64,000 nt of DNA from Podospora anserina (GCA_017654855.1 CM030336.1:3162001-3226000), one strand, 5' to 3'. Numbered from the stretch's first letter, positions 6,632 to 31,859 are shown. Translations and numbers: made by a program. Notes: a model not told the origin generated them from the letters alone.

Positions 6632-7850
6632 TCACACCACGGAATACACCATTTTCTGACCTGACAACGATTGACTCCGGATGATATCAACTCCCTTCAT
6701 GACCCCCTCCCACCCACCGGGCATCACCTTGATTGGATGAGCTTGAATCTTACCGCCGTCCAGTAAGTTTTGCACAGCAGCGAATGCCTGAGCGCCAAAC
6801 CTTCTATCCTCCGGAGTTGCCTCTCGTCCATATTCACCCTCCAAACCCACCTTGATTCCGAAGATGCTGAGAACCATCACCCACGACGGCTCAATCGTCA
6901 GAGCCCGCGTCTGCGCTACAGTATCTCTGAACGGTTCAAGAGAAACATAGCGACCGCCAGCACGCCCGATTGATTCGAAGCAAAGCTTGGTAGTGTCGGC
7001 CTGTGAGACGCAGTCGAGAGCATACTCGAGCTCGTTGAGGGTGTACTCGCGGATCTCTTGAGCACATGTTGGGGAGTGGTAGTCAAAGACCTTTTCGGCA
7101 CCGAACCGTTCAACAAGGGCAAAGTTGGAAGGGGAGCATGATGCGATTGGTCTGAGGCCGGCACTAGTGAAAGGAAGAGGAATGGTCAGCGGAGACTCCA
7201 AAGAGATGATGGGGACCGAACTTACTTTTTCAGAAGTTGAATGGCTCTGGTTCCAGACGCCGTGCTGCCTCCAGCAACAAGAACAAATTCTCCTTGCTTT
7301 GGCTCACCTCTGCGGAGGTCGTCCAGAGTGGCAGGTACACGAAGTCTGTCAAACAACGATAGCGTTGCGGTGGCAACACCGGTTCCCAAGCTAGCACCCT
7401 CCTCGAAGCTCATGTCGTCGGGAAGTCTGAGTAAAAGATCCGCCATTGCTCCCACGTATTGAGAGAACCCCCCAATGGTTTTGACGTTTGAATTGCCGCC
7501 AAAAACCATGCCGGCGACCCTATCCCCGACTGAGAGATGCGCAGGAGCGTCTTTCCCGAGGGCAACAATGGTGCCTGCAAAGTCATAACCATGAATAGCT
7601 CCCTGAGCTGGGCTGTAATCGAGCATCTTGGCATCTGCTGGGTTGATCGCCACCGCGGCCGTTTTCACTGCCAAGGTTAGATTACGGTGGGTATGGGAGA
7701 GGAGGCGACGAGGGTAAACAAACCGATTGCCATGTCGGGTGCGAGCGTCGGCACTGCGACATCGTGCTGAATGGCGAGTTTCCCAGGTCCCTGAGCAATA
7801 ATCGCCGTCTGTGTCCTTGGGAGGGAGAGCTCTGCGTTCAACGAGGGCAT
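6632..7850 (-). CDS. Trans-acting enoyl reductase (LovC-like, MDR superfamily)
   Basis: MPSLNAELSLPRTQTAII..., AVAINPADAK, GYDFAG, VLVAGGSTASGTRAIQLLK, FGAEKVFDY, and C-terminal SGQKMVY. Two introns. Confidence 0.9.
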
Positions 7851-8366
7851 GATTGTGAGTGTTGGTTAGGTGGAATGAAGTTGGATCAAAGGGGTGGGGT
7901 AGATAATTAAATTGTCCAGATTATCAGCTTTCAAGATGTCAACAACCCGTTGCAACAATGCCGTCAGACGCCTTGCTTTAAACTGGTGTTCCACAGCATG
8001 TTAACCGTTAACCAGATCGGGTGAACCAGACTATCGGGCCTGTCCTGCCGCCGCATTTGCGCTGTCTCGGCGCATTGCACGAGGCAAAATCACCGAACAC
8101 AACGCCGAACAGAAGGGCCCGAAATATTTATCAATCAACCGCCGAGCCAAGACTTCACTCTCAACCGCCGAATTTCGATGGCTCCATCGAATCTGCGGTG
8201 ATGTTGCTTACCTATTTCTGCAGAGACCCACCGCAGCAGGATGGTCCTCGGCGGTGACGGGAATCTAGCATATCCTCCAGCACCCAATTTCCAGCAGCGG
8301 CTTGAACTATCATAGCCTTTCAGAATAACAGAATCATTTCTGTTCATTCTGGCAATCCAAACACCA

Positions 8367-11300
8367 ATGGCGGCAACCGAAATCCTAACCTGCCCCGTTG
8401 CAGTCGACAAGGAGGCCAACCTGACTCTCTGCCCAGCTCTGTACCCAGGCCAAGCACTCGACACACCCAAGAACCCCCAAAAGATCGAAGAAGCGGAAAT
8501 TATCGACCACTCCAAGCTCCTCAAAATTCCGTCTCCAAAGCATGGCCATTACTTCGGCCTGCTGGGTCACGCCCCAGATCTCGACCCTGACCTGCCTGTC
8601 AAGTCGTTCTGGAAGCTGATGGACCAGTATGGAGAGATATTCCAGCTTGACCTCGGGATGGCCTACCCCCGGGTGTTTGTCGGTAGCCGAGAGCTGGTCA
8701 ACGAGATGGCGGATGACGAACGGTTCAGCAAGTTTACTCATCGACTGCACAAGGAGATGAGACCGGTGTTTGGGGATGGTTTGTTTTCTGCCGAGTCAAC
8801 GGACAAGGCTTGGTGGAAGGCTCATAGGCTGCTGGTGCCGATCTTTGGTGAGTTTGTCAAAGTCTTTGATGGGGTTGGGGCTAACATCGGAAAGGATCGC
8901 TGGGGTTGAGCAAGATGTTTGATGACATGTAAGTTTCCTGTGCAGCTTGATATTTTTGGGTGACCTCTTTCTAATTTCTTCATCCCAACAGGCAAGATCT
9001 TTCGGCGCAGCTTGTGATGAAGTGGGACAGATTTGGCCCAGATCACGAAATCGAATGCATCGACGACATGGCGAGACTGGCATTCGACACCGTTGGGCTC
9101 TGTGCTTTCGGTTACCGGTTCAACGAGTTCTACACTGCGGATCATCACCCTTTCATGACCCAGCTCAAGGAAGCCATTGTCGAATCGGGGAGGCGAGCGA
9201 ATAGGCCAGAGATCCTCAATCAGTTCTACTGTAAGTATGGCCCGTCAGAGAAACTCTAGCAGACCCATGCTAATCCCGTCATTCAGACAAAGAGGAACAG
9301 CACCGTCAGGAGAATATCGCCAAGATGAAGGAGCTGTGCAAGAAGATCATCCAAGACCGGATTGACAACCCAAAGTCAGAGGCAAATGATCTGCTCAATC
9401 TGATGATCCACGGCGTTGATAGGGAGACGGGAGAGAAGCTCACGCGAGAGAATATCGAGTACCAGATCCCAACCTTCCTAGGCGCTGGGTGAGTCTGCAA
9501 TATATCGACCAATCCTTTGACAGACATGTACTGACAGCTTCTATTAGATACGAGACAACCTCGGCAACCTTGAGCTTTATCTACTACCTTTTGTGTACGT
9601 ACCCGGAGACCATGGCCAAGGCCCAGCAGGAGGTGGACGAGGTTGTCGGTGACAAGGTTCTCACATACGAGATGCTGCCCAAGTTGAAATACCTCGATGC
9701 GTGCATCAAGGAAGCGTTGTAAGAAAACCCCCCCTTACACTCTGTCCCATATTGCTTCAACTAACCCACTTCGAGACGTATCCAGCACCCCAGCAGTTTG
9801 CTCACGAGGTTTGCAGTCAAGGATACAGTCTTGGGAGGAAAGTACTTTGTCAGAAAGGGTCAGATGGTGTCGGGCGTCTGGAGGCATTTCCATAGAGACC
9901 CCGTCGTCTGGGGTGCTGATTCAGATGAGTTCAAACCGGAAAGGATGCTGGACAGGAATTTCCAGGCGTTACCACCTAATTCCTGGAAGCCGGTGAGTCG
10001 GAGCCATGTTCCCGGTAACGGTACAATACTGACATTACAACCTTTTCAGTTCGGCGATGGTCAGCGAGCGTGCATTGGACGTGGATTTGCGGAGCAAGAA
10101 ATTCTCATTAATGTAGCCATGGTCCTACAAAGATTTGACGTTGAAAAGGCAGACCCCAACTACATTTTGGAGCTCAAAGTGCGTATTGTTGTCCTTTCCA
10201 ACCTGGCTTCTTGGGCTTGTCTATTTTCTCTCTTTCTTCTACTCAAAGAGGTGATTAGCTGGCTAACCTGAAAACAGGGTCAAATGGCTTTGAAATGTAT
10301 TGACTTCAAGATACGAGCGAAAAGGCGGTCAGGAAAATCTTCCTTGAGTGGTATCCCTGGCGGCGGCTCCCAGCCAAAGACGGCTGCCACCAAGACAAGA
10401 CAAAACGTTACACCACAAACCGACAGCAACACTCCCAAAAAATCCATCACCGTTTTGTTTGGCGGCAACATGGGGACCGCCGAGAGTCTGATGCAATCGC
10501 TTTCGCGCATCGCCCCCGACTTTGGGCTCGCGGTTGACGATGTGAGGACGCTGGACTCTGCCACTGACAGTCTGCCCACGGATCGGCCCTGTATCATCAT
10601 CACACCCTCCTACGACGGACGACCTCCGGATAACGCCAAGAAGTTTGTCAAGTGGCTTGAGCAACTTTCTAGCAATGGCACCAAGCTCTCAGGCGTCAAA
10701 TATGCTGTTTTCGCATTAGGTAATTCCGATTGGGTGAATACCTTCTACAAGATTCCTAAGCTCATTGACTACACGCTTGAGAGCCTCGGTGCCGAGCGCC
10801 TCGTCGAAACAGGTTATGGAAACGTGAAGCAAGACCTTGTTGGACCGTGGGAAACCTGGGAAGAAGAGCTGTGCTTGGCCCTCTCAGGAGTGTCGGCTGG
10901 CAAAGCCCACAAGGCACAGGCAGGCGTCGAAGTGAGCATCGAACGCCATAACCTCAAGACTCTTCCCAGAGTTCTAGGCGGTGATCAAATGGGCGTTGGG
11001 ACCATTGCCGCCATTCGCCAACTGGCTGATACCTCGGTGGGACCAGCGAAATACCACGTCGACGTCCGTCTTCCTCCTGGCTGCCACTACCGAGCGGGAG
11101 ACTACCTCGTTGTTCAAGGCCGCAACTCCACCGAATCCGTTCACCGAACCATTGCCCGTTTCAGTCTCAGCCCAGCAGACACCATGACAGTTCAATCCTC
11201 CAAGAAGGATTTCCTACCATCCCAACCAATGGCAATAGAGCACTTTTTAAGACAACGTGTCGAGCTCGCCGCACCCATCACCAAACGCCAGCTCCTCACG

Positions 11301-12167
11301 CTCTCCCTCCACGCGGAAGATTCCTCCCCGGAGAAAGCCCATCTTCTCAACCTCACCCAGGACTCCGCCTATGAAGACCTGCTCACAAACCGGCACTCTG
11401 TCCTCGATGTTCTCAGCACTATCCCTACCTTGGCCCTCCCTTTTGGAGTCTTTATCGATCTCCTCCCTCCCCTTGCACCGAGGGTGTACAGCATTTCGTC
11501 ATCTCCCCTCTCCCCGTCCTCGGGAACACTCCAGTCTGGCCTCGTCGCATCCATCACGTTTGACCTGTTCCAATCCCCTGCCTTGAGCAGTCACGGAACA
11601 TTCAACGGCGTCGCCTCATCCTACCTCTCCTCCCGCAAGATAGGGGATGAGATATCTTGTCTTGTCCGTCCCACAACACTGCCGTTTCAGCTCCCAAAAG
11701 ACATCTCCAAACCAATCGTCATGGTTGCGGCAGGCAGCGGGATTGCCCCCATGAGGGGTCTTCTCCAAGAGCGAGCCGAGCTGATGAAGCAAGGTGGGGA
11801 GTTCGGCGAGGCGGTCCTCTTCTTTGGGTGTAGGGATGAGGAAAAGGATTATTTGTACAAGGAGGAGCTGGAAAGGTGGGAGAGAGGGGGGCTGGTCAGG
11901 GTCGTGGCGTGTTTTTCTCGGCCGGGAGGGAAGAAGGGGAGGTATGTCACTGATGCTTTGTGGGAAGAACGGGATAGGATGTGGGAAGTGGTTGAGAAGG
12001 GGGGCAGGATTTTCACTTGTGGGAGTGCTGCTAGACTTGGGAGGAGTGCCGGGGAGGTTTGGAGGAGGATTTGGGAGGAGAAGTCGGGACAGGGGGGGGA
12101 GAGAGAGGGAGAGGAGTGGTTGGAGGGGATCAAGGGAGATGGGAGGTATGTTTGTGATGTTTACTGA
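8367..12167 (+). CDS. Self-sufficient cytochrome P450/NADPH-P450 reductase fusion (CYP505 clan)
   Basis: GDGLFSA, I-helix AG|YETT, KEAL|R, FKPER and heme motif FGDGQRACIG. These are followed by a flavodoxin domain (LFGGNMGTAE, SYDGRPPDNA, GNSDW) and an FNR domain (RVYSISSS, AAGSGIAPMRG, FFGCR). Multiple introns. Confidence 0.93.
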
Positions 12168-13329
12168 GGGTTTGTTTTTCGCAGTGATTTCACGTATGGT
12201 AGGTATTTAGCCAAGTATGGTTCTGAGGTAATATAGAGTGGAATTGAACGGTAAACGTGAAGCAAGAGCCCAACTGCGTTTGACCATGCCTGGCGTGATA
12301 TGACGCAGTTCTTGGAGGGCTTTAGCATGTGAGCCTACCTGCATATAGAGGTCCATCTTGGCTTTCTGCAATTTGTGGAATATTGCGGTGCCGGTAAATA
12401 GAGCAAGGTCTGAGATGCCTGTGGGAGCGGACACCCACTACGGGTTTTATAGGGAACAGCGAAAAGGTGGTCTGTACCCAAGGGCGCAACTGCTTGGTTC
12501 ATAAGCAGGTTTGCTCTCTCTAAGAAAACACAGGCCCGGGTAGCACAATTGGTGATTCGCTCTGCTTGGACTTAGACCAGAAATCAGTTTAACGACTGAC
12601 AATGGTGTCCGAGAAGGTTCTGAGTTCGTCTCACCTCCAACAGTCAGATTACCTATCCCCTCTCCAAGATAGTAAGAGATTGCCCAGTTCGACTCTGGGA
12701 CATGGCGCATTTTTTTCCTTTATAAAAAGCTGTTACCTATATGTGGTTTGGAGTAAGTCAGATCAAGTACGCGGTAACTTTCCAGTTTCATTTCTTCTGT
12801 TCCTTTAGTTTTTAAGCACCTTCGAGGTGACGTTCTGCAATCCAATCAAAGTCTCCGGGTCGTCTTGACGTCATTTTCAAAGGGGAAGGGGGGATGAAGC
12901 ATGCTGCCGTCAAACCACGCCCCAGAGCCATTGTAGTTTTGGCCAAACACCTTGTCGTCATCCCAGCTCGCGGAAGATTTAGTCATCATCAGCAATGGGG
13001 TGTAAAGTATGCAAGGTACGTAGCTGCACTTCCGGCTTTGATTGATTAATGGAGATACACCCAAGGTAGGTGCACGACCTCGGACCGATGGTGGGAACGG
13101 CCCAAGTCCGACTAAATGCCTCGCGAATTAGGTAGGACGGACTTAGGAGTTAACAAGGACTTAACCATCTACATGGAACCGGGTGGTGGCAATCATTAAA
13201 TAGCTGCCAAGCTCTCAATCGACAGTCTTCAATTCATTGTCTGATGTTACGAATACCGCATTCCGGTGCCGTCGTCACCCGCCTACTTTGCAAGTTCTCT
13301 GCCTTTGTACCGGTCAAACCTCCCACCTC

Positions 13330-14226
13330 ATGGCCACCTCATCTCCTCGGACGACGAATGTCTGGGAGGTTGTCGACTTTGTGGGAACTCATCACGACAC
13401 GTACGCGGCAATCTCCCCGGCCGATGCGGACTTGTCTGGAAAATCGGTTCTCATCACGGGCGCCTCCAGGGGAATTGGCATGGCAACCGGCATTCGCTTT
13501 GCCGCGGCTGGATGTTCCAAGATTGCTCTGGTAGCCCGCTCTTCTCTTCGTCAGGCCGAGCAAGAGATCAAAGCTGCTGCTGTTGCCGCAGGCCGAGAGG
13601 AACCTCTCGTCCTTACCCTGAACATGGATGTGACCGTGGAGGAGTCGGTCACTGAAGCTGTGGATAAGGTATCCAAGGCATTTGGAGGAAGTCTGGATGT
13701 CCTGATCGCCAACGCGGGCTACCTGCCAGAATGGAGACCCGTTGTGGAGTCTGATCCGACGGAATGGTGGAAGACTTGGGAGATCAACATAAAGGGGACC
13801 TATCTTTGTGCGAAGTCTTTTATCCCCCTGCTGTTGGAGTCGTCCATCAAGACTTTCATCACCGTCTCCTCTGCTGGAGCAAACGCACTGTTCTACGGAG
13901 CCTCAGCATACCAGACCACCAAATTTGCAACCCTAAGGTTCACCGAGTTCATCGACCAGGAGTACCACGACAAAGGCCTGATTGCTATTGCGATTCACCC
14001 AGGAGCGGTCAAAACAGAACTGGCATTGAATATGCCCGAGGAGCATCATACCATCCTCCAGGACACGCCCGAGTTACCTGCCGACGCCATGGTATGGCTT
14101 GCCAAGGAACGCAGAGAGTGGCTTGCGGGCCGATTCTTCAACTGCTGCTGGGATGTCGATGAATTGGAAAATCGGAAAGATGAGATCATAAGCCGTGACT
14201 TGCTGAAATTTAGACTTACTATCTGA
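13330..14226 (+). CDS. Short-chain dehydrogenase/reductase
   Basis: TGASRGIG, ANAG, YQTTK (YxxxK) and IHPGAVKT. Intronless. Confidence 0.92.
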   Translation: MATSSPRTTNVWEVVDFVGTHHDTYAAISPADADLSGKSVLITGASRGIGMATGIRFAAAGCSKIALVARSSLRQAEQEIKAAAVAAGREEPLVLTLNMDVTVEESVTEAVDKVSKAFGGSLDVLIANAGYLPEWRPVVESDPTEWWKTWEINIKGTYLCAKSFIPLLLESSIKTFITVSSAGANALFYGASAYQTTKFATLRFTEFIDQEYHDKGLIAIAIHPGAVKTELALNMPEEHHTILQDTPELPADAMVWLAKERREWLAGRFFNCCWDVDELENRKDEIISRDLLKFRLTI

Positions 14227-15195: not shown

Positions 15196-16044
15196 ATGAT
15201 GGATTCAGACTCAGATGCTGAAGTACTTGAGCGATCTAGTCTGCTTTCTCCTCAGTCAAACGCCGCGTCGCCATTAACATGCTACTTGGCCTCACCCCAA
15301 ATGGGGTGGCGTTATGGAGAACATTTGAAACCCGGCGTAGCTCTGCCGAATGGTATTTGAGTAGATACTACGAGCATCTCAACGTTCCGGAGCCCAGCGA
15401 ACCGATCGAAGATCTAGGTGGGTTTCCCTTCCCGATGACCAGTTGTACCTCGATATCTTACACATCTGCTATACATGTAGATGCCGCAATTGATGCTGCG
15501 GTTTCCGGAACGCACCAAAGTCAGCACCTCACTGGACTTAGGGGCTGTGCTGATAGAGTTGCACGGGCCGTCTTCATGATGCAAGAAATACTCGCCTATA
15601 TTCAGGAGGTGAGGAGCTCCTCTAACGCGCCGAAGCAGCTTGCCATCCCGGGTATTGCGGCAGCAGGAAGGTAGGATTATGATTTCACTTTGCTCTCTTG
15701 CCCTTGTCCTCCAATTATACCAGCTAACATCCGCATCTAGTCTCACAAATATCGCTGTTTCCGCATGGCTTTTCCCGGCGAAGATCGCTATATGGGTCGC
15801 GCTGTTATTTAATGGAGTGGCCGTATTAACCGGGATAGTCGGCTATGCCCTATGGCATCCTGATCTCAACAAGCACTACCAAAGTAAACAAGCCCAAATA
15901 CAGATATTGAGGCGTGCAGTGGAGGAGCAGTATGATGTCGTCGAAATCAACAAGCAGCAGACTTTGCTCAGACCAAAGACTTTTGCACACCTAAAGTCAG
16001 ATTTGATGTATCACCGGCCAAAAGAAGATGAGCCTGAGAGTTGA
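15196..16044 (+). pseudogene. Paralog A of a small membrane-hairpin protein; apparent frameshift in exon 1, or a shorter product from ATG 15279
   Basis: Three-exon structure and peptide similarity to 19662-20510. The N-terminus MDSDSDAEVLERSSLLS (ATG 15196/15199) is out of frame with the downstream homologous segment LGLTPNG...SAEWY. Confidence 0.6.
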
Positions 16045-19093: not shown

Positions 19094-19661
19094 CCTGATA
19101 AGACTGCATTTATGGGTATGGTTGGAAGGTTAGCGAGGTGAGTATGTAGAGACTAGAAGAAAATGGTTTGAGTTCGATGGTACTTGATGGTCCCGTCCCC
19201 ACTCATTATAGAGGAAGACTGGAGGCAGGCTTCGAACGGCCATCGTGGTCAAAGATGGCGCAACACGAAACAGGAGAACCGCCAGAACCGCCAGGACGAG
19301 ACCGCGCCCAACTGTACGTACAGTTTCTTTCTCTGTGGCTGAAAATGATGGGAGACATGCAGTGTTCAGGGTGCAGTGAGGTGTTACTGTATACCATGCG
19401 CTGAAGCGTGGGTCTGAGACGGCGTTGTTGGCGTGACCTGTTTCACCAGCTCGGCGGCCAATTGAATGTTGACCTTGCCGCAGCCGCAAGTCTAAACTCC
19501 GTGTTGGACACACAGCTGCTCACGTGACAGCCTGCCCAGCTCATGCAGAAGAGCGGTACCTGACATGTTATCTCCAGCCGCCTTCCTTCCAACGATTCAC
19601 ATCATCGTTACCTTATCATTGTCTCAAACCACCGCGGTCTTTACCATAACCCCATACAATC

Positions 19662-20510
19662 ATGGAATCCGACTCACATGTAGAAGTTGTTGAACGCTCC
19701 TGGCTTCTATCGGGCCAAGAAAATCCTGCATTGCCATCACAACAAGGAGGAGCCACAGGGCAACCAGAGTCGATCGGAGTAACCCCAACTGGCAGAATGA
19801 TATGGTTGAACTTTGACGCTCATCGACACTCAGCCGAGTACTACATGAAAGGATACTATGAGCACCACAGCAGGCTGGATTTGAACCAGCCGACCACAGA
19901 TCTGGGTAAGCCGACATTGTCAACATGCGTGTTTGATATCCCGGAACTAATTAGGAGCAGAAGCGGCTCTCGACGCGGCTGTTCCTGGATCTGAACACAG
20001 CGAGCACCTCTTTGGACTCAAGGTCTGTCTCGATAAGGTCATTCACGATGTGTACCTGATGGAGGAACTCCTTACCTATGTTCAGGAGGTAAGGAAAGAG
20101 ACTGATCGTCCGAAACAATCTGGTATCCCGGGTGCTGCCGCCGCAGGAAGGTATGTCTCTTTCCATCTTTTTCCTGTGCTATATCAGCCAACATGAACCT
20201 ACCTAGCCTTGCCACTATCACCGCCTCCGCGGCCCTTCTCCCGGCGAAGATTGCCACCTGGGTTGCTTTGTCGTCCGTTGGAGTCGCCGTATCTACCGTG
20301 ATGGTAGGATGGGCGATATGGCCAAGGGACATCAACAGGCATTACGAAACTCTTCAAGACCAGATACAGGCCTTCAGACTTGCGGCGGAACGTTTCGACC
20401 AAGCAGAGATCAACAAACAGCAGCAGCGTGTGCTGAGGGGCAACACATATGCGCATCTAAGGACAGACCTCATGTTTCACTGGCCCAATAATGACAACGT
20501 ATACACATGA
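19662..20510 (+). CDS. Paralog B of a small membrane-hairpin protein, apparently intact (3 exons)
   Basis: MESDSHVEVVERSWLLS..., with introns at ~19906-19953 and ~20151-20206. The hydrophobic segment LATITASAALLPAKIATWVALSSVGVAVSTVMVGWAIWP is followed by a predicted coiled coil. Confidence 0.75.
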
Positions 20511-20813
20511 TACGTAGAGATATGGACGCCAAGCATGTAACAAAGCGCTCCCGGGAGGAGTCCAATTATACAGCAGCTCATAGCTGCATCGTCCAAGCAT
20601 GAAATGCTTCCAGGTTCTTCGCGCCGTTGCAATGCCCCTCGGTTACCCTTGAGCCCCTTTTTTCATAATCTGCTTGCTTGCATTGAGTTCACTTACCCCA
20701 ACGTCCCCGCATGGAACGACACGGCCCTGACCCAACCATGATTCCCCAACATTCTGCATCTGCCGATTAGCCCGTTGTCAATAGTACCATTCGGATATTC
20801 AACCAAAGCCAGA

Positions 20814-20826
20814 CGAGTTGGGGTCA
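20814..20826 (+). promoter_or_regulatory. Shared upstream motif CGAGTTGGGGTCA (copy before the SnoaL/LdpA-like gene)
   Basis: The exact 13-mer also occurs at 22194-22206, upstream of the adjacent dioxygenase. Confidence 0.45.
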
Positions 20827-20999
20827 GCCGTGTGAACTGCTTGCCGTTCTCCGAGACCCCTCACTAAGATCCACCATTGTTGCGATTGGACCCTCCGGAC
20901 TGCAATGCAGATACATAACTCGAATGACATCCACCTCACTCACCATCCAACATCCAATAATCTCGCAAAGACCCCAATCACAGAGAAACCTAACTGACC

Positions 21000-22019
21000 A
21001 TGGAGCAAGAATTCGCGGAACTCAAGAAGCAGGTCGAAACGCTGCAGAAGGAGCTCAGCCGGGTTTCAGGCAAGTTTGTTGTCAGGTCTTGATAAAAAGC
21101 CACACACTAACCAGAGTTCTCTCCAGACGAGGCCGAAGTCCGCAAAACCCACTTCAAATATGGCTACTATCTCGACAAGTGTCTCTACAACGAGGTAAGT
21201 CACCCTCGTTCGTTCATCTCTCTCCTCAAGGTTGCCAACACCCCAAAAGGTAGTTGATATGTTCTCCGACCACCCCGACGCCTACGTCGAGTTTCTCGGC
21301 GGCCGCTACCGCGGCAAAGCCGGCATCGCCCGCCTCTACCAGGGCCGTTTCCAGCAATCCTTTGTCAAGGGCCGCAACGGCCCAGTCGAAGGCTGGCTAT
21401 TGGACCACCTCATGATGCAAGAGATTGTCGACGTCGACTCCACTGGGAAACACGCCTGGTGTCGGATGCGTGCACTCATGCAAGCTGGCACACATGAGTC
21501 GATTGAGGAGTATTACCCGTTAGTGTCACCGCAAAAGGCCGGCTAAAGAAGAGCTACTGACAAATAGACAGCCGCGGGCATCGTCAGTGGTGGGAGGGGG
21601 GTCTCTACGAGAACGAGTACATCAAGGAGGATGGAGTGTGGAAGCTGTTTAGGTACCGGTACTTCCCCTTTTGGCATGCGGAGCATGAGAAGGGGTGGAG
21701 CCACACGAAGAAAGAGTACATCCCTTTTGCGAAGTCCATATTTCCTGAGAACCCTGATGGGCCGGATGAGCTCGTCGAGCAGAGGAGCTTGTGGCCGGAC
21801 ACACGGGTGGTCCCCTTCCATTACCCAAATCCCGTAACTGGGAAAAGGGTAAACCCTGATGATCTCAGGGCCCCGCGGTATGGGGAGCCGGTGGAGACGA
21901 GTGAGCCTGCGCTGGTGTTGGATCTGCCGAAGGATCAGAAGAGAGAGGGGGCGGAGATGAGGGAACCCAAGGTGGGGGAGAAGGTCTTGCCTGAGCTGGT
22001 CCAATTCAAGGCAGAATAA
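21000..22019 (+). CDS. SnoaL/NTF2-fold protein resembling bacterial diarylpropane gamma-formaldehyde lyase LdpA/LsdE
   Basis: Spliced product MEQEFAELKKQVETLQKELSRVSDEAEVRKTHFKYGYYLDKCLYNEVVDMF...GGRYRGKAG...NGPVEGWLLDHLMMQEIVDV...QWWEGGLYENEYIKEDGVWK...VVPFHYPNPVTG. Three introns, the first GC-AG (21070-21126). Confidence 0.8.
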
Positions 22020-22193
22020 AGTAGCTTGCTTTCAGGGGCTGTTTTGAGGGGTGTTGCTTTAGCTGCACAATTGACATTTTGATTTGAGCACATCTTGACA
22101 AATGTTTTGCTTCGGTGTGTCTTTTGTCTCTTGCTCGCCGTCCAACCGCTTTGAGTGCATGTTTATCTGACACTGACAAGGCCTGACAGTTGC

Positions 22194-22206
22194 CGAGTTG
22201 GGGTCA
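22194..22206 (+). promoter_or_regulatory. Shared upstream motif CGAGTTGGGGTCA (copy before the dioxygenase gene)
   Basis: Identical to 20814-20826. Confidence 0.45.
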
Positions 22207-22494
22207 AGCTACCCCCCTTCTGATCCCCCGCACGTACCTAGCTTACCCGGGCACCCTTTGCCGGGAAGAAACAATCCCCCACCTGCATCTCGGAACCATC
22301 CGATCTACCGTCGGAGGTTTAATTTGGACGATTTGAGGGTGTCGCCACTTTTGTGATGGTTTGCGGGGTTGAGCCCACCCCTGAAGATCCGCACAGTGGA
22401 TCTGGAACAGCAACACTTCTTCTATCCACCCTCCCCTAGTCTTCTTCTCACTCATCGCAACAAGCAAAAAGTAAACAAACCACTTCAGGAAAAA

Positions 22495-24356
22495 ATGGCA
22501 CACATCTTCCACCTCGCCCCCCACATCGACACCTCCCCAAACTACAGCAACAATGAGCTCACCTCCCCAGAAAAGGTCGCCTTCCCTAAAACAGACGCCT
22601 TCCGGTCTATGAACGCCCCCTCGAGATTCGAAGGCTCCGTCTTCAACCTCGAAGTCACCGGCACAATCCCACCCGACATCTCCGGCACGTTTTACCGCGT
22701 TCAGCCTGACCACCGCTTTCCCCCTTTGTACGAAGACGACATCCATTTCAACGGCGACGGCTCCGTAACCGCCATCCGCATCGCCAACGGCCACGCCGAC
22801 TTCCAGCAAAAGTATGTCGAGACCGATCGATACAAACACGAGACCGCCGCGAGGAGGTCGCTGTTTGGGAAGTACCGCAACCCCTACACAGACAATGAAT
22901 CTGTCAAGGGCGTCATCCGCACCGCGTCAAACACCAATATCGTTTTCTGGAGGGGGATGCTGCTTGCCATGAAGGAGGATGGGCCCCCTTTTGCGATGGA
23001 CCCCGACACACTCGAGACGTTGGGACGGTATGACTTTGAAGGGCAAATCCTGTCCCCTACTTTTTGTGCGCATCCAAAGTTTGACCCTGACACGGGGGAA
23101 ATGGTCTGCTTTGCTTATGAGTGTGGTGGTGACGGGGCGGATTGCGGGGTTGATGTGGCTGTTTGGACGGTGGATAAGGATGGGAAGAAGACGCAGGAGG
23201 GGTGGTATAAAGCCCCGTTTGCGGGTATGATTCATGATGCTGGGTTGACGGAGAATTATCTCGTTTTAGCGTTGACCCCGATCAAGATGAATTTGGAGAG
23301 ACTGAAGCAGGGAAAGAATAAATTTGCGTGGGACCCGGAGGAGGATCAGTGGTATGCCGTGGTCCCGAGGAGGGGGACTGGAGATCCTGGAGAGATTACT
23401 TGGTTTAGAGGTGACAACGGTATGTGCTTGCTGTCTGGAGCTTCACAGTCTCTGAGGATAACTGCTAACAGGGTCAAGCTTTCCATGGACATGTTGCCGG
23501 CGCTTATGAGCTAGCCTCAGGAGAAATAGTCTTTGACTTGACGGTTGCCGACGGAAACGTTTTCTTCTTCTTCCCACCAGACAAGAACGTCACACCCTCC
23601 GCGGACAGCATTGCGAAGAGAAACAAGCTCAGCTCGCCAACCACGCGATGGATCTTTGATCCCAAGGCCAAGAAGTCGGCTATCCGGAAACCTGAGGCAG
23701 GGGATTCTGACGTTTGGGTGGCGGATGAGCGTGTCAAACCAGCGGTTGTTTGGCTGACCAACGGGGAGTTCTCACGAATCGACGATCGGTATGTAACCAA
23801 GCCCTACCGTCACTTCTGGCAAGCCGTCGTAGATCCGACAAGACCGTATGACTTTGCCAAGTTGGGACCGCCTGCCGGCGGGTTGTTCAATTCTCTGGGC
23901 CACTACACATGGGGACCCGAGCATTACCACACCGGCTCAACAACATCATCTGTGACAAACGGAGAGACCAAGAAAGAAAAGGCTGGCCTGGAGGATGTGT
24001 ACTTTCCTGGGCCAACCATGACCTTCCAAGAACCGACCTTCATCCCAAAGGAAGAAGGGGCAGAAGGCGAGGGATACCTCATCGCGCTGCTGAATCACTT
24101 GGATGTGCTGAGAAATGATGTTTTGATTTTTGACGCGCAGAACTTGAGCCAAGGTCCGCTTGCGGTGATTCACCTGCCGTTGAAGCTCAAATTGGGGTTG
24201 CATGGTAACTGGGTCGATAACAAGGACATCGAGGAGTGGAAGGCAAGGAGAGAGGCAACTGGCGATGTTGGGCCTGTGAAAGTGGCTAGTGAACCACTAC
24301 CATGGCAGAAGAAGTTCCAGTCAGGGCAGGCAAATGGCCAGGAGAGGAGCTTTTAA
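22495..24356 (+). CDS. Carotenoid-cleavage oxygenase family, lignostilbene/resveratrol dioxygenase-like (copy 1)
   Basis: [46 protein letters not shown] across an intron (~23420-23478), [20 protein letters not shown]. The four iron-binding His contexts are present. Confidence 0.93.
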
Positions 24357-24808
24357 ACAAAGGGGGGAGATAATGATGTTGAACTGGGCTACTTCCACAG
24401 CTTCTCCTGATGGCGGAGTAAATACCCATTCACCTCTGATATTCTGATGATGATTTTGAGTTAGAGCAACAAAATAGTAGGCATCTCCGGAGTTCTCAGA
24501 CGCTTAATTGTGCAGCTGCCCCTGTGAGAATTGGATATTCGCACAGGATGACAAACCGTGCAAAAGGCGATCTAGATAACCTGGTGGCGAGTTGGATACA
24601 GTACATTACACACAGCCATCTACCTCAACAAACAAACAAATAAATAAAAAAGTTCTACTAATAGGGGCGCGTCACCTCCAACATGAACAATGACGTCTCC
24701 CACATGTGTTGTCCTCCTTTGTGAGCGCTCACAAACCTTCCAACATCTGTACACCCATTGCAACAACAATATTCCTCTAACACCCCAGCCATTTACCAAC
24801 TTGGTCCT

Positions 24809-26580
24809 TTAACACCTCCCACGCCAACAGGAGGAGGCGACGATTCGCCAAGTGCTCCAATCTCGGCTTCCTGGCCCTTCCGCTCGCACGCGCCTGCCAC
24901 CGACACGGACATCAGCGCCTGGGAACGCAAGCCCCGTGTTTTTGCGCTTGCTGGCGACGGGGATGTCTTGATCTGGGATGGCGTCCATGCCCCGCGTCTT
25001 TGACTTTTTGCCAGCGTTGGCATCTCCATTCCCAACATCAGCCAGGTCCCTTTTGCGCTTCCCAGTTGCCACTTGAACTTGGCGACTATGACCTTGAGCC
25101 TTGAGCTCTTGACCAGTGACTTTCCCATCCTTGCCAGCGTCGCCCGTGTTGGTTGGGATACTGACGCAGTTGATGGCGTTGGCACTAATGCTGACATCAC
25201 TAATCTCGACCTTGACGATGTCCCCGGCGACACCACTGTCCTTGTTGCCACCAAGACCAGGCTTAATACCAGCACCGCTATCCAGAGGAACGAAGATGCA
25301 GTTCTCGACGATCCAGTCTTCATACCGCTTGCCCGTTTCATGAAGTAACTCACTCTCGGCAGCCTGTTCCGACATCTCATCATCCACGTCCCTCATCATT
25401 TGCGGCATGTTTCTAGTCATCTTCCAAACTTCCATTCTGGCGTCGGCCACCTGTTTTCTAGGCCTGCTCAGCTCGATTGCCTCGGCGTTTTCTTTCGAGA
25501 TGGCATTGACTCAATTCTTCGATGATGTGGTTGAAGACGGGCCGGTTGTCGTGTTTGGGACGGCTGGCGCCACAGCACTGCCCACTGTCGCGTTAGGCAT
25601 GTCAAGTAGGGGGTGCCATCGCTGCCACCTAGGATAAGTCAAACGCTGTTGAGTCGATAGCGGTGGCAATGACGGTCCGGGCACACTGAATGTGAACGCA
25701 GGGCCAGTGTCTGATGAGGCCGGACCAATGGTGGCGGATGGGACCGTTGAGGGTGGCGTGGGGAGCTTATAGCGACGGTTGTCTTCTGCATCGAAGAGGT
25801 GCTTGACTTCCGTTGTAGGGGTTTGAGACTGGGGGACCCAGTGAGGATTCTCTGACCAGCTACCTGGTACATGCTCTCCTTTGGCCAGTGTCTGATTTTG
25901 ACTAGCAAACCTGTCGGCGGTGTCGTGGGGTTCCATTTGATGCCCGGGCAGCCAAACATACTTGCAGCTGATAAAAACACCCCGGGACAACTGGGACTTT
26001 CTCAGCGCCCTCTCTTTGTCATGAATTTCCTGGATCAATCATGTTTCCAGCGGCCCTCTGAGTTTGTCCTTGCCCAGCACCTTGTTGAGAGCGTTTAGAC
26101 AATCTGTGTGGACGATAACGCTGGCAGCAAGTGGCCTCTCAATGGTAGCCAATGTCCCAAGTCTTCTGACAATGGTCTGAACCTCAAATATGGCCAACAT
26201 CAATGTCGCTAAGATGGCCACAAGCTTGGTGTACTCAGGTGAGAATGTCGGTCCCAACTTCCACCCAACAGCAACGTGTTGGGCGGGTTCGTAAACGCTG
26301 GTTATGTCATGCCGTTTGCAGGCTATGCCAATTCCTCCGAGGCTATACCTCTCAGCATAAGGCGCGATAGATCCGTCGCAAAAGAATGCCAATTGAATGC
26401 ACAACGGCGAGGGTACATGAACCGAAGCTCTGTGGGCAGCCTCTAAGGCGTCCTTGTGTTCTTTCCGGTCGAGGGAAAGGTTTTGCCGTTTTCGGACTCG
26501 CTTATGGGGTGTCGCAATAACAAGTGGCACCCCACCCTCTTTGCTGTTGTTGTTATTTTCATCATCATCTGAAAATAACT
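24809..26580 (-). pseudogene. Stand-alone RNase H-like domain protein pseudogene with a long low-complexity C-terminus
   Basis: Three track ORFs share one frame, separated by TGA codons at 26039-26041 and 25511-25513. Motifs: FFCDGS, EYTKLVAI (K at the usual catalytic E), VHTDC, WLPGH, DTADRFA. Confidence 0.7.
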
Positions 26581-26796
26581 GTCACTGCGACGTTGAAATT
26601 AGCTTATCGTTTTCAGTAGCAGCAAACTATATATAAGTTAAGATATATCTAACGTTATAGACTAATCGGTCGAAAGAGTCTGGTGGAAACGGTGACGAAT
26701 TTCGAAAATGAAATCAAATAGGGGTCTCAGGGATAGATACTTAAAGTAGTAGCTCTCCGACAAACTCTTCGAATGAACTATACAGCTCTCTATCTA

Positions 26797-29785: not shown

Positions 29786-31117
29786 TTACTGGCTAAACTG
29801 CCACCAGTTAAACCGGAACAGCTCGCCCCCGGCCCCAGTAAAGCGAAAGAAGAGATCCCTGGTGCCTGTGGCGCCGCCAACAGCGCAATTAACGTTGGTC
29901 CATGTCTGCCAACCGCCAGTGCCAGGCACATTGCAGGTCCCGACAAGCGTGCCGCCGGTGCTGTCTAGGCGCACCTCGATCTTGCCGCCCGAAGTGGCGG
30001 ACGAGACCCGCGCAGTGAAGGACTTGGCGCCGCTACCAAACGCGACGCCCTTGACCTTGATGTAATCTCCGTTATTGATGGACAACACATTCATACCGCC
30101 CTCGCTGCACGGCTCTGTCTGCACGCCCGATTCCCATGCAATGGTCTCGGCCTCCTGGCGCACGTAGGGGTTAAGGTTGCCGACCTGGGGTGCGCCGTCC
30201 TTGGACATGTTGATGACGGGAATGGAGCCGTTGGCGCCGTACGTGAAGGGCTCGACACAGACGGAGCGGGTGTAGCCGCCGCCGCCGGGCAGCGCGCCGT
30301 TGTGGTAAAAGAAGTAGGACGAGCCCTGGTAGTCGATCACGCCCGGGTGGTTGGTAAAGCTGCTGCCCTGGGTGGGCATCACGACACCGCCGTATGTCCA
30401 GGGGCCGGTCGGGCCGGGCCCGGTCGAGTAGCCAATGTGCTCTGAGCAGCAGCTGGCGGCGAACACCATGTAGTATTTGCCCGTCCGCTTGTAGATCCAG
30501 GACCCTTCCTCATACGTGGTCGGCCGCTCGGCGTTGCCGGAGCGGGTGCCGAAGCCAGTCGTCGTCAACGTCACCGTGTTGATGCCGCCGCTGTATGACA
30601 CCATATCCGGGTTCAGTTTGACGTACCACAGCCCCGGATTTCCCCAGTACATGTAGGCCTGGCCGTCATCATCAATCCACACAGTCGGGTCGATCCCCCA
30701 GTTCTCGACCAGCGGCCTGCCCAGCGCGTCACGGAAGGGCCCTGTAGGGCTGTCGCTGACGCCCACGCCGACGGCCATGGCACCATTTCGGCGGCGCATC
30801 GAAGCGTACCAGTAAAACTTGCCATTGCGCTGGATCGTCTGTCCCGCCCACGCGTTAGCATCGGCCCAGCTAAAGGTCGCCAGGCTCATAGGCGAGCCGT
30901 GGTCCTGCCAGTTGACCATATCGACCGAAGAGAAGACGCGCCAATCCTTCATGACAAAGGTGGTCGACCCGGGCTCATCATGGCCAGTGTAGAGGTACAC
31001 ACGTCCATTGTGCACGAGCGGCGCCGGGTCGGTGGAGTATATGGTCTGAATAATAGGGTTGTCGGCCGTAGCCACGCTGGCCAGGGCGGCAGTGAGTAAC
31101 GGCGCTGAGACTTTCAT
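29786..31117 (-). CDS. Secreted GH43 beta-xylosidase/arabinofuranosidase with C-terminal CBM6
   Basis: Signal peptide MKVSAPLLTAALASVATA, TDPAPLV, AWAGQ, IDPTVWIDDDG, YEEGSW, TNHPG. CBM6 motifs RQEAET and TGGWQTW. Intronless and GC-rich. Confidence 0.93.
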   Translation of the reverse strand: MKVSAPLLTAALASVATADNPIIQTIYSTDPAPLVHNGRVYLYTGHDEPGSTTFVMKDWRVFSSVDMVNWQDHGSPMSLATFSWADANAWAGQTIQRNGKFYWYASMRRRNGAMAVGVGVSDSPTGPFRDALGRPLVENWGIDPTVWIDDDGQAYMYWGNPGLWYVKLNPDMVSYSGGINTVTLTTTGFGTRSGNAERPTTYEEGSWIYKRTGKYYMVFAASCCSEHIGYSTGPGPTGPWTYGGVVMPTQGSSFTNHPGVIDYQGSSYFFYHNGALPGGGGYTRSVCVEPFTYGANGSIPVINMSKDGAPQVGNLNPYVRQEAETIAWESGVQTEPCSEGGMNVLSINNGDYIKVKGVAFGSGAKSFTARVSSATSGGKIEVRLDSTGGTLVGTCNVPGTGGWQTWTNVNCAVGGATGTRDLFFRFTGAGGELFRFNWWQFSQ

Positions 31118-31859
31118 GGTCAGGCTAGGGTGAGCATTGGCTTGGGGACCGTGGATAATGTCGAGGACTGCGATCTGAGCCGATTCTCGAGTGCAATAAC
31201 ATCCTGATGTCGCAGCGATCAGGTCAAGAGTTGATATAATTTTCAGGGGTGAGATGTTCTCAATCAGCAAACGACAAACTGTGTACCTAGGACTCCGAAA
31301 TTGACGGCCAGCGGCTTGCATATTATGTCACGATGCAATATACGTGCGTAGCTCATCACCGCTTTTGGCAAAGCGGACCCAACTTCCCGGTCGACATAAG
31401 CTCCCGTAGGCTTAGTCGTGAACCGCACCAGTCCGAGAAGGCTTCCGTTGTGACATTCCGATAACCGGGGCTTTATAACCTGTCCGACGGTCCCAGCGAT
31501 ATAAGCGCGCCAAGGGAAAATCACCACTTGCCGAACAATACATAATAAAGGTTGCCGTATGTAATCGAGTGAGCAGGGGTCTACCCTATTAATCCCATCT
31601 TCACCTAAAAGCCTCTAAATTCGCCCCTATGTTTATCTTTCCATAACCCTTATACGGTCGTGCAAATGCGACCGTTAAATGTAGCTTATGGAGGCCATTA
31701 AAATGATCCTTTGTCTAGAAACTTTGGTGCAGAAAAGTTCAATGGAATCTACTATTGAAGTGTTCAACGGAATCTACCCCCTGTTTCTAAAGGGGCCCTT
31801 TTTTTGCGGGCAACTTCATCGGAATCTACTATAGTCCATCGGAGAATAATAGATAGGGG

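Follow-up and report, generated by a model that had tools for sequence, protein, structure and literature searches.

Does a filamentous ascomycete carry, in two neighboring genes, its own route for dismantling lignin-derived dimers? To our knowledge, the pathways known for such dimers are all bacterial. According to a review of February 2026, fungal pathways specific to these model compounds "have not yet been reported", and the degradation of oligomers is suggested there to be mainly the work of bacteria (PMC12997858). In our literature search, no paper was found on a fungal homolog of the bacterial lyase LdpA (LsdE) or on its pairing with a stilbene dioxygenase in fungi. The question is raised by a locus of Podospora anserina within the window, that is, the whole stretch of 64,000 nt that was analyzed. 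In an earlier note made from the sequence alone, a spliced SnoaL-fold gene (gene A) and a stilbene-type carotenoid-cleavage oxygenase gene (gene B) were proposed to form an intron-bearing version of the bacterial two-step pathway in which LdpA acts on a beta-1 dimer and a dioxygenase cleaves the resulting lignostilbene.

The region at 21000-24356 extends exactly from the start codon of gene A to the stop codon of gene B (Table 1). Gene A (21000-22019, plus strand) has four exons and a coding sequence of 855 nt that yields a 284-aa SnoaL/NTF2 protein, and gene B (22495-24356, plus strand) has two exons that yield a 600-aa stilbene-type carotenoid-cleavage oxygenase. These gene models, 475 nt apart, bear out the proposal that the SnoaL gene lies upstream of, and co-oriented with, the oxygenase gene. 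The model of gene A is supported by an end-to-end match to a 284-aa database protein (P0001; 2 differences in 284 positions), and annotated 284-aa fungal proteins align to it over residues 1-284. Further, the N-terminus of P0001 and of the homologs is obtained only with the chosen boundaries of intron 1. The five motifs quoted in the earlier note all occur in the spliced protein, where they start at residues 34 (KYGYYLDK), 63 (GGRYRGKAG), 89 (NGPVEGWLLDHLMMQEIVDV), 141 (QWWEGGLYENEY), and 217 (PFHYPNPVTG). The Pfam SnoaL_4 domain was detected on exons 3 and 4. A protein atlas look-up with gene A returned bacterial SnoaL clusters only. Over the N-terminal 50 aa, maximum Kyte-Doolittle hydropathy in 10 aa is 0.28 (gene A) and 0.80 (gene B), such that both proteins lack a hydrophobic stretch at the N-terminus; the proposed absence of signal peptides agrees with this result, which comes from a hydropathy check rather than a signal-peptide predictor.

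Table 1. Coordinates of the gene A-gene B locus, counted from the first nucleotide of the window.
Feature	Position	Strand	Length and contents
Gene A exon 1	21000..21069	+	ATG; start of N-terminal helix; full-length match to P0001 and annotated fungal proteins
Gene A intron 1	21070..21126	+	57 nt, non-canonical GC-AG (GCAAGT...CTCCAG)
Gene A exon 2	21127..21194	+	KYGYYLDK with Tyr35, Asp40
Gene A intron 2	21195..21249	+	55 nt, GT-AG (GTAAGT...CAAAAG)
Gene A exon 3	21250..21518	+	Tyr76 (LdpA Tyr74), His99 (LdpA His97)
Gene A intron 3	21519..21571	+	53 nt, GT-AG (GTTAGT...AGACAG)
Gene A exon 4 and stop codon	21572..22019	+	Glu144, Tyr148, Tyr166 (LdpA Glu143, Tyr147, Tyr165); His171 (LdpA Gln170), Glu184 (LdpA His183); C-terminal arm and low-confidence tail
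A-B spacer	22020..22494	+	475 nt, between co-oriented genes
Gene B exon 1	22495..23419	+	Tyr and Lys for 4-hydroxyl; first two iron-binding His
Gene B intron	23420..23478	+	59 nt, GT-AG
Gene B exon 2 and stop codon	23479..24356	+	Iron-binding His 3 and 4 (FHGH, LHGNW)

Residues 6-230 of gene A match the LdpA chains 8ABV, 8ABT, and 8ABU (E 4e-51 to 3e-48), which are the SpLdpA and NaLdpA entries (PMC9942872). These are the only significant solved relatives by sequence; the next is BaiE (E 0.83). An AlphaFold2 model of gene A (pLDDT 89.5, pTM 0.85) consists of three helices and a curved sheet, and a Foldseek comparison of this model against the PDB likewise recovered SpLdpA (E 6.5e-25, target TM 0.84, 40% identity). 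The runners-up were a putative scytalone dehydratase (8e-9), LinA (1e-7), and BaiE (2e-7), at 16-17% identity; LinA, BaiE, and scytalone dehydratase are 16 orders of magnitude worse than SpLdpA. Identity between gene A and LdpA is 37.6% by BLAST against an LdpA ortholog and 39-40% in the fold alignment, and the C-terminal arm region of gene A is also alignable with LdpA. Taken together, sequence and predicted fold support the membership of the gene A protein in the LdpA (LsdE) lyase family, as had been proposed, with LdpA as its closest characterized relative, ahead of LinA, BaiE, and scytalone dehydratase.

The active site points in the same direction, with two exceptions. In LdpA, His97 and Asp40 are described as an acid-base dyad, Glu143 as an acid, and Tyr35 and Tyr147 as an oxyanion hole, and mutation of these residues inactivates NaLdpA (PMC9942872). 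All five are present in gene A (His99 and Asp40, Glu144, Tyr35 and Tyr148) and in 27 of 28 fungal rows; per site, His97 is found in 28/28 rows and both Asp40 and the stacking Tyr165 (Tyr166 in gene A) in 27/28. The motif II triad Glu143-Tyr165-Gln170 is called exclusive to LdpA in the same study (PMC9942872). Gene A carries the Glu and Tyr of this triad but has His171 in place of Gln170, and this position is His in 27/28 fungal rows versus Gln in 16/16 LdpA-clade rows. Similarly, His183, a beta-ring contact, is replaced by Glu184 in gene A and is His in 0/28 fungal versus 16/16 LdpA-clade rows. In LdpA this residue is reported to contact the beta-guaiacyl phenol, and its mutant to be approximately fivefold less active, with activity not abolished (PMC9942872). 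Of the LdpA positions that were tabulated, gene A keeps 7 of 9 that are conserved; a tenth is variable within LdpA itself. The expectation that the LdpA active-site residues would be retained therefore holds for the five essential residues and fails for Gln170 and His183. The Gln-to-His change in motif II can be regarded as an experiment of nature on how this family selects its substrates.

The phylogeny separates a fungal clade (17 rows, SH-aLRT 99) from the LdpA clade (13 rows, SH-aLRT 96), the latter anchored by a row that is near-identical to 8ABT throughout (E 3e-159). The fungal clade groups instead with bacterial proteins of the His type (27 rows, SH-aLRT 91). Because an AU test of fungal and LdpA rows as one clade was borderline (p 0.048, for a group named after the tree was seen), the distinction rests on the signature residues and the tree, and on those grounds gene A is not an LdpA ortholog. 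Among the matches listed, the nearest relatives of gene A are His-type bacterial proteins (50-52% identity), including proteins of Novosphingobium umbonatum, Hyphococcus (two proteins), Nocardioides cheoyonin, and a Sphingobium MAG; the bacterial His-type sister group is itself 43-46% identical to the LdpA ortholog. The surroundings of His-type genes are those of aromatic catabolism and encode LigM-like GCV_T, VanA-like Rieske, MFS, PQQ dehydrogenase, DUF3237, and aldehyde dehydrogenase proteins. Judged by its residues, gene A is part of a separate "His171" subfamily that also includes uncharacterized bacterial proteins.

Gene B matches the Pfam RPE65 profile with E values of 8e-83 (exon 1) and 5e-37 (exon 2), its exons covering profile positions 2-262 and 267-469 of 469, and a Podospora pseudopauciseta protein (P0387) differs from it at 5 of 600 positions. 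At approximately 75% identity (E 8e-158 and 1e-104), the structure 9LP3, deposited as "lignostilbene dioxygenase", confirms the partner of gene A as a stilbene-type dioxygenase; a literature search for a paper describing 9LP3 found none. Identity to Neurospora crassa CAO-1 (5U8X) is approximately 50% over exon 1, and an identification of gene B as the CAO-1 ortholog was rejected given that it is closer to 9LP3. The His residues of AHPKFDP and GMIHD align with those that we take to be His197 and His248 of CAO-1, numbers that agree with a count on the alignment, and both 9LP3 and 5V2D have His at the positions of the FHGH and LHGNW His residues, such that all four His iron ligands are present. 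Additionally, GKYRN and LAMKED align with Tyr133 and Lys164 of CAO-1, which presumably activate the substrate 4-hydroxyl. The best NCBIfam models, LigStilDioxAlpha and NOV2, are both lignostilbene dioxygenases; gene B scored 345 and 140 bits against a cut-off of 800 when scanned as halves with these models, which were built for bacteria.

The explanation that accommodates these observations best, and that we consider reasonably probable, is that genes A and B form a catabolic module without secretion signals in which a lyase from the LdpA/PcfL family, working without a cofactor, and a stilbene dioxygenase would process a lignin-derived or lignan-type dimer. A short-chain dehydrogenase (SDR) gene at 13204-14226 was considered as a further member and rejected as generic, with no LigD/LigL-like best matches, and no Pfam link to the pathway was seen for the other neighbors in the window, a P450-reductase fusion and a GH43 among these; the module is therefore taken as two genes. 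By analogy to LdpA, gene A, as a putative trimer, would accept a dimer with a 4-hydroxyphenyl ring, a benzylic leaving group, and a gamma-hydroxymethyl group. [quoted passage not shown] Flux would then pass to gene B, a dioxygenase whose iron is bound by four His; this enzyme would cleave the stilbene double bond to yield two aromatic aldehydes of the vanillin type and, in doing so, would also remove the stilbene product, a strong inhibitor of LdpA.

Which dimer would enter this module? The phenylcoumaran gamma-formaldehyde lyase PcfL (Saro_0796) of N. aromaticivorans is reported to convert a beta-5 dimer to a stilbene and formaldehyde, a reaction followed by the stilbene dioxygenase LsdD (PMC11323797). 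Since the family includes this beta-5 enzyme, and since the identity of gene A to LdpA is low and its signature residues are changed, the substrate is not readable from homology; as far as sequence can indicate, the dimer could equally be of the beta-1 type (a diarylpropanediol), of the beta-5 type (a phenylcoumaran), or of another kind.

A narrower case of the module, and the one chosen in the earlier note, is that gene A is isofunctional with LdpA, converting erythro-diguaiacylpropanediol (beta-1) to lignostilbene that gene B would cleave to two molecules of vanillin. LdpA is the only characterized relative that was directly compared, the five residues essential in NaLdpA and the stacking Tyr165 are kept, and the nearest solved relative of gene B was deposited under the name of this very activity. 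Set against these points are the position of the fungal clade, apart from LdpA and with the His-type bacterial proteins, and the replacement of both Gln170 and His183, residues invariant across the LdpA clade; the AU result counts only weakly. Moreover, sphingomonad paralogs that are at most 40% identical to LdpA are described as inactive on either DGPD diastereomer (PMC9942872), and the 37.6% of gene A lies within this bound. At 37.6-40% identity, in a separate clade, and with both signature residues changed, the beta-1 assignment could not be upheld, and we consider isofunctionality with LdpA somewhat unlikely.

A second narrower case, which we regard as doubtful, is that gene A resembles PcfL and acts on a beta-5 dimer (oxidized dehydrodiconiferyl alcohol) by opening its phenylcoumaran ring, giving formaldehyde and a carboxy-stilbene for cleavage by gene B. 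PcfL is an LdpA homolog with 44% identity and 8 of 11 active-site residues shared (PMC11323797), the bacterial proteins that are sister to the fungal clade have 43-46% identity to the LdpA ortholog, and gene A itself keeps 7 of the 9 conserved positions. The His that replaces Gln170 could conceivably protonate a phenolate leaving group. In a Nocardioides operon (dioxygenase, His-type lyase, aldehyde dehydrogenase), the lyase is immediately followed by the aldehyde dehydrogenase, as pcfL is by ferD (PMC11323797). On the other side, no N. aromaticivorans row was among the best 120 matches to the N. umbonatum His-type protein, NCBIfam holds no model for LdpA or PcfL, and a literature search on PcfL returned the original paper only. 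Further, the pcfL-ferD-ligW-lsdD arrangement was found in none of the sphingomonad His-type loci whose gene context was scanned, and ferD, ligW, and lsdD were not seen in the window.

Gene A might also have a different reaction or role altogether, such as a biosynthetic step, or the dehydration or decarboxylation of a defense compound from plants (a lignan, neolignan, or stilbenoid), with the dioxygenase serving detoxification rather than lignin catabolism. CAO-1 is a stilbene-cleaving enzyme of a fungus. Cleavage of resveratrol and isoeugenol by fungal stilbene oxygenases has been reported (PMC12333492), and in NTF2 enzymes the same His-Asp dyad is used for dehydration, dehydrochlorination, and decarboxylation (PMC9942872). 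The changes at Gln170 and His183 also suggest that the beta side of the substrate differs. However, the residues specific to the quinone-methide route, Glu as the acid and the two Tyr of the oxyanion hole, are retained, and the link to a stilbene dioxygenase in bacteria tracks these catalytic residues among the matches listed, rendering such a role very unlikely. 

The bacterial link, which counts in favor of the module, was observed in a sample obtained with a degenerate DNA pattern scan (at least 120 loci), and this sample favors proteins that carry precisely the scanned motif. An RPE65 homolog occurred in 22 of 120 eight-kb blocks with a family member (of at least 120 bacterial matches, those listed). 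Among the 91 single-domain bacterial proteins listed, RPE65 was nearby in 15 of 52 with the five catalytic residues versus 1 of 39 without them (Fisher p 8e-4, for rows that are not phylogenetically independent).

In fungi, synteny was assessed from gene-model fusions, locus tags, and same-contig hints. A total of 18 species were named in the homolog lists of both genes. Fused SnoaL+RPE65 gene models were present in 5 of these and consecutive locus tags in 2 (Mycothermus 1691/1692 and Diaporthe 009817/009818); in Sarocladium the tags are five apart, 4 species have a same-contig hint from equal-sized contigs, and in 6 the two proteins are on unequal-sized contigs, some of which belong to different assemblies. 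As we take these fungi to be classified, the orders with the pairing are Sordariales and Diaporthales; for Xylariales, Amphisphaeriales, and Pleosporales there are same-contig hints. Join points vary among the fusions, which are probably merged annotations; the A-B spacer contains 19 candidate in-frame GT...AG read-through combinations. It is highly improbable that the adjacency is metabolically meaningless, with unrelated genes as neighbors in Sordariales: although the generic SDR, the P450-reductase fusion, and the GH43 are neighbors without a pathway link and 6 of the 18 species gave no adjacency evidence, the pairing recurs in two ascomycete orders, with hints from three more, and bacteria show an independent link between the two families that has been established by biochemistry (PMC9942872, PMC12997858). 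With five fused models and two species with consecutive tags among 18, the pairing is seen to recur in other ascomycetes. Neither a closer kinship to another SnoaL enzyme, nor a loss of the catalytic residues, nor an isolated pairing was found. The pair thus appears, from its genes, to be a real, conserved fungal version of a known type of two-step pathway.

For the two-gene module, it follows that a fungal intracellular route for lignin fragments by way of the A-B pair is plausible from these gene models. Named fungal matches belong to the Sordariomycetes, Eurotiomycetes, Dothideomycetes, and Leotiomycetes. More tentatively, and with less than even confidence, it can be suggested that filamentous ascomycetes possess an intracellular, cofactor-free route for C-C-linked lignin dimers, in which a lyase of bacterial ancestry that has gained introns and belongs to the Glu-Tyr-His subfamily acts together with a neighboring dioxygenase that splits the stilbene into monomers; some Sordariales might even produce both activities as a single fused polypeptide. 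If true, this would be the first fungal catabolic pathway for lignin dimers, and oligomers would be assimilated by the fungi themselves rather than left to bacteria. A conserved pair in a fungus of dung and plant litter and in many other ascomycetes provides a concrete two-gene hypothesis. The orthologs in Mycothermus and Thermothelomyces could, in addition, be thermostable eukaryotic enzymes for the conversion of C-C-linked dimers to vanillin-type aldehydes.

Compared with known systems, gene A shares the NTF2 barrel and the His-Asp dyad with LinA, BaiE, and scytalone dehydratase, but these are proteins of approximately 150-170 aa without the C-terminal arm, and their Foldseek E values are 1e-7 to 1e-5. 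PcfL, compared by published description only, belongs to the same family as LdpA by its authors' account (PMC11323797). The bacterial His-type proteins share with gene A the His at LdpA position 170 and the lack of His183; unlike gene A, their genes are intron-less, and a dioxygenase lies within the 8-kb block in 1 of 7 among the matches listed. Gene B resembles the stilbene-cleaving oxygenases 9LP3, CAO-1 (5U8X), NOV1 (5J53), and LsdA (6OJR) in its four His and its Tyr/Lys pair. LdpA is like gene A in fold, length class, N-terminal helix, C-terminal arm, and the presence of a dioxygenase as genomic partner, and gene A differs from it in an extra tail of approximately 50 residues, the end of which is of low confidence in the model, and in being a eukaryotic gene with three introns.

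Reading and translating window positions 20500-25000 in all frames recovered the two co-oriented, spliced plus-strand genes that the earlier note had proposed as a fungal module for beta-1 lignin dimers: gene A, encoding a SnoaL/NTF2-fold protein, and gene B, encoding a stilbene-type carotenoid-cleavage oxygenase (see table). The proposed span, 21000-24356, runs exactly from the start codon of gene A to the stop codon of gene B, and all five motifs that had been quoted for the lyase are present in the spliced protein. The gene A introns measure 57, 55, and 53 nt, and the first has GC-AG borders with the donor GCAAGT rather than GT, a splice confirmed by the protein match to P0001 (a 284-aa database protein matching the gene A product end to end with 2 differences) and to homologues. 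Annotated 284-aa proteins of other Sordariales align to residues 1-284 of the product at 79-83% identity; because these proteins and P0001 match, the model is more than an open frame.

Features in and around the gene A/gene B pair (window coordinates)
Feature	Position	Strand	Remarks
FAD-binding monooxygenase fragment	2799-3887		Upstream; Pfam
Zinc alcohol dehydrogenase	6632-7920	-	Upstream; Pfam
P450 fused to flavodoxin/FAD/NAD reductase	8316-12167	+	Upstream; Pfam
SDR, generic	13204-14226	+	Upstream; Pfam
Small ORF set, first	15240-16044	+	Upstream of gene A
Small ORF set, second	19650-20510	+	Upstream of gene A
Gene A exons	21000-21069, 21127-21194, 21250-21518, 21572-22019	+	CDS 855 nt, 284 aa
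Gene A intron 1	21070-21126	+	GC-AG
Gene B exons	22495-23419, 23479-24356	+	59-nt intron, 600 aa
Same-frame ORFs	24809-25510, 25511-26038, 26039-26581	-	Split only by stop codons; no Pfam match
GH43-CBM6 hydrolase	29786-31327	-	Downstream; Pfam

Pfam finds in gene A the generic SnoaL_4 domain and nothing else. When all PDB sequences were compared with P0001 as a full-length proxy, three matches were obtained (E 4e-51 to 3e-48, residues 6-230), and the next was BaiE at E 0.83. The three matches represent NaLdpA (8ABT), its H97Q mutant (8ABU), and SpLdpA (8ABV/8ABW), gamma-formaldehyde lyases of erythro-DGPD, a beta-1 dimer (PMC9942872). An AlphaFold2 model of the gene A product (45-sequence alignment; pLDDT 89.5, pTM 0.85) likewise placed the LdpA entries at the top of a Foldseek search of the PDB (E 6.5e-25, target TM 0.84, 39-40% identical across some 225 columns), followed by a putative scytalone dehydratase, LinA, and BaiE (E 8e-9 to 4e-7, 16-18% identity). 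LdpA ranks first by both sequence and predicted structure, so the possibility raised in the earlier note that another SnoaL enzyme is the nearest characterized homologue is not borne out.

NaLdpA activity is abolished by substitution of His97, Asp40 (to Ala), Glu143, Tyr35, or Tyr147, and substitutions of Tyr74 and His183 have smaller effects (PMC9942872). LdpA numbering was anchored here on the Novosphingobium subterraneum orthologue L037_1, which is near-identical to 8ABT throughout (E 3e-159). On this basis LdpA Tyr35, Asp40, Tyr74, His97, Glu143, Tyr147, and Tyr165 correspond to gene A Tyr35, Asp40, Tyr76, His99, Glu144, Tyr148, and Tyr166. Gln170 is replaced by His171 and His183 by Glu184; the five residues essential in NaLdpA are all present. 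In the alignment, 27 of 28 fungal rows keep all five essential residues, 27 of 28 carry His at LdpA position 170, and none carries His at position 183, while Gln170 and His183 are both kept in all 16 LdpA-clade rows.

A whole-library HMMER search returned 1161 relatives of gene A at E <= 0.001, and a pattern scan of bacterial genomes supplied a sample of at least 120 loci. Trees were built with FastTree (97 rows) and IQ-TREE (58 rows, a subset picked by the author); before the first, 36 of 91 bacterial single-domain proteins (each >80% identical to a kept one) and all multi-domain proteins were removed. The two trees agree in giving the fungal proteins a clade of their own (support 99), apart from that of the LdpA orthologues (support 96), and the fungal clade groups with bacterial proteins carrying His at position 170 ("His-type") with moderate support (85 and 91). 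These bacterial relatives come from Novosphingobium umbonatum, a Sphingobium MAG, Hyphococcus, Nocardioides cheoyonin, and others; the gene A product is 50-52% identical to them and 37.6% identical to the LdpA orthologue. A tree constrained to unite fungi and LdpA is worse by 27 log-likelihood units (p-AU 0.048), a borderline value for a group picked after the tree was seen. The LdpA study describes sphingomonad paralogues at <=40% identity as inactive on DGPD (PMC9942872). Positions 170 and 183, where gene A departs from LdpA, lie on the side facing the beta ring and the substituent at C-alpha, so the gene A enzyme may act on a beta-1 dimer or on another one. What is supported of the proposed beta-1 module is membership in the LdpA family and the dioxygenase partner; the beta-1 assignment is not supported as proposed, given these changes, the 37.6% identity, and the separate clade.

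In many bacterial relatives (P0066-P0120, P0121-P0267; loci such as L004, L006, L032, L054, L089) three LdpA-like domains stand in tandem within 650-720 aa, and some reach about 1000 aa with an added esterase/lipase domain; as LdpA is a homotrimer, these proteins may be covalent pseudo-trimers.

The gene B product has 5 differences in 600 positions from a protein of Podospora pseudopauciseta, which places the window in the Podospora anserina species complex (Sordariales). Pfam RPE65 is matched by both exons, and the best NCBIfam models are lignostilbene dioxygenases. Among solved structures the closest is 9LP3 (E 8e-158 and 1e-104, about 75% identity), a deposited lignostilbene dioxygenase for which the literature search found no paper, followed by Neurospora CAO-1 (about 50%), NOV1, NOV2, and LsdA. 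The four iron-binding His and the Tyr and Lys acting on the substrate 4-hydroxyl are kept; the CAO-1 residue numbers of these sites agree with a count on the alignment. Fungal relatives from Moesziomyces and Thermothelomyces are alkene-cleaving dioxygenases for 4-hydroxy-styrenes/stilbenes (PMC12333492). Several orthologues (P0387, P0428, P0443, P0475, P0493) bear the public name "transcriptional regulatory protein rco1", although they are enzymes of the RPE65 family; Rco1, for resveratrol cleavage oxygenase 1, seems to have been expanded wrongly.

Adjacency in other fungi was judged from names and contig data in the two homologue lists, and among the matches listed 18 species are named in both. 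The pairing recurs outside the window: five species (Podospora fimiseda, P. australis, Cladorrhinum samala, Achaetomium macrosporum, Rhypophila decipiens) have a fused SnoaL+RPE65 gene model and two have consecutive locus tags (Mycothermus thermophilus 1691/1692, Diaporthe amygdali 009817/009818). The tags are five apart in Sarocladium strictum, the two proteins are on contigs of equal length in four species (Canariomyces, Xylariales sp. AK1849, Periconia, Apiospora kogelbergensis), and six show no evidence of adjacency, their contigs differing in size and coming partly from different assemblies. The fused proteins (P0016, P0017, P0026, P0028, P0033; 832-883 aa, five Sordariales genomes) run from gene A, left at about residue 256-265, straight into Met1 of gene B. 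They are probably merged annotations; a read-through fusion transcript could also lie behind them, and window positions 21900-22494 hold 19 in-frame, stop-free GT...AG combinations able to give the same fusion.

Among the bacterial loci, an RPE65 homologue occurs in 22 of 120 eight-kb blocks with a family member, a lower bound because blocks were not centred on the gene. For the 91 single-domain bacterial proteins among the matches listed, a dioxygenase shares the block in 15 of 52 with the five catalytic residues versus 1 of 39 without (Fisher p 8e-4, indicative only since the rows are related). In Nocardioides a dioxygenase is followed by a His-type lyase and then an aldehyde dehydrogenase; other His-type genes lie among LigM-like, VanA-like, MFS, PQQ-dehydrogenase, and DUF3237 genes. 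Separately, loci L016 and L077 share contig JAFAZM010000144.1 (13.4 kb, Sphingomonadaceae MAG), which carries one lyase of each subtype (His-type and LdpA-type) along with a stilbene dioxygenase, a VanA-like oxygenase, a LigM-like demethylase, and an MFS transporter, and looks like a compact dimer-catabolism island.

By homology with LdpA, the gene A enzyme would bind a 4-hydroxyphenyl dimer whose phenolate is stabilized by Tyr35 and Tyr148, Glu144 would help to expel the benzylic leaving group to give a quinone methide, and His99 with Asp40 would cleave the bond between C-beta and C-gamma. Formaldehyde would be released together with a 4-hydroxystilbene, which gene B would split into two aldehydes. 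Lignostilbene is a severe competitive inhibitor of LdpA (PMC9942872), and a dedicated adjoining dioxygenase therefore makes physiological sense. Hydropathy reveals no N-terminal hydrophobic stretch in either product, consistent with a cytosolic pathway.

Pfam analysis of neighbours revealed no extended pathway around the pair in the window, no link between it and the five Pfam-matched genes in the table, and no Pfam match in its immediate flanks. The two upstream ORF sets are clearly paralogous: both contain a hydrophobic segment, and their C-terminal part is conserved; nearby ORFs tested had no Pfam match. The minus-strand ORFs just downstream of gene B may be a decayed gene.

Named eukaryotic matches to gene A (best 120 of 274) all belong to Pezizomycotina. 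A literature search for a fungal LdpA-type lyase or lyase-dioxygenase pair found no report, and a 2026 review describes fungal dimer pathways as unreported (PMC12997858). The enzyme family, its chemistry, and the lyase-dioxygenase logic are already known from sphingomonads; no fungal counterpart is known. A second characterized member, PcfL, has 44% identity to LdpA, with 8 of 11 active-site residues in common (PMC11323797), and turns a beta-5 phenylcoumaran acid into formaldehyde and a stilbene (PMC11323797; reviewed in PMC12997858). The bacterial His-type group, at 43-46% identity to LdpA, comes close to the figure published for PcfL, a resemblance offered as a lead.
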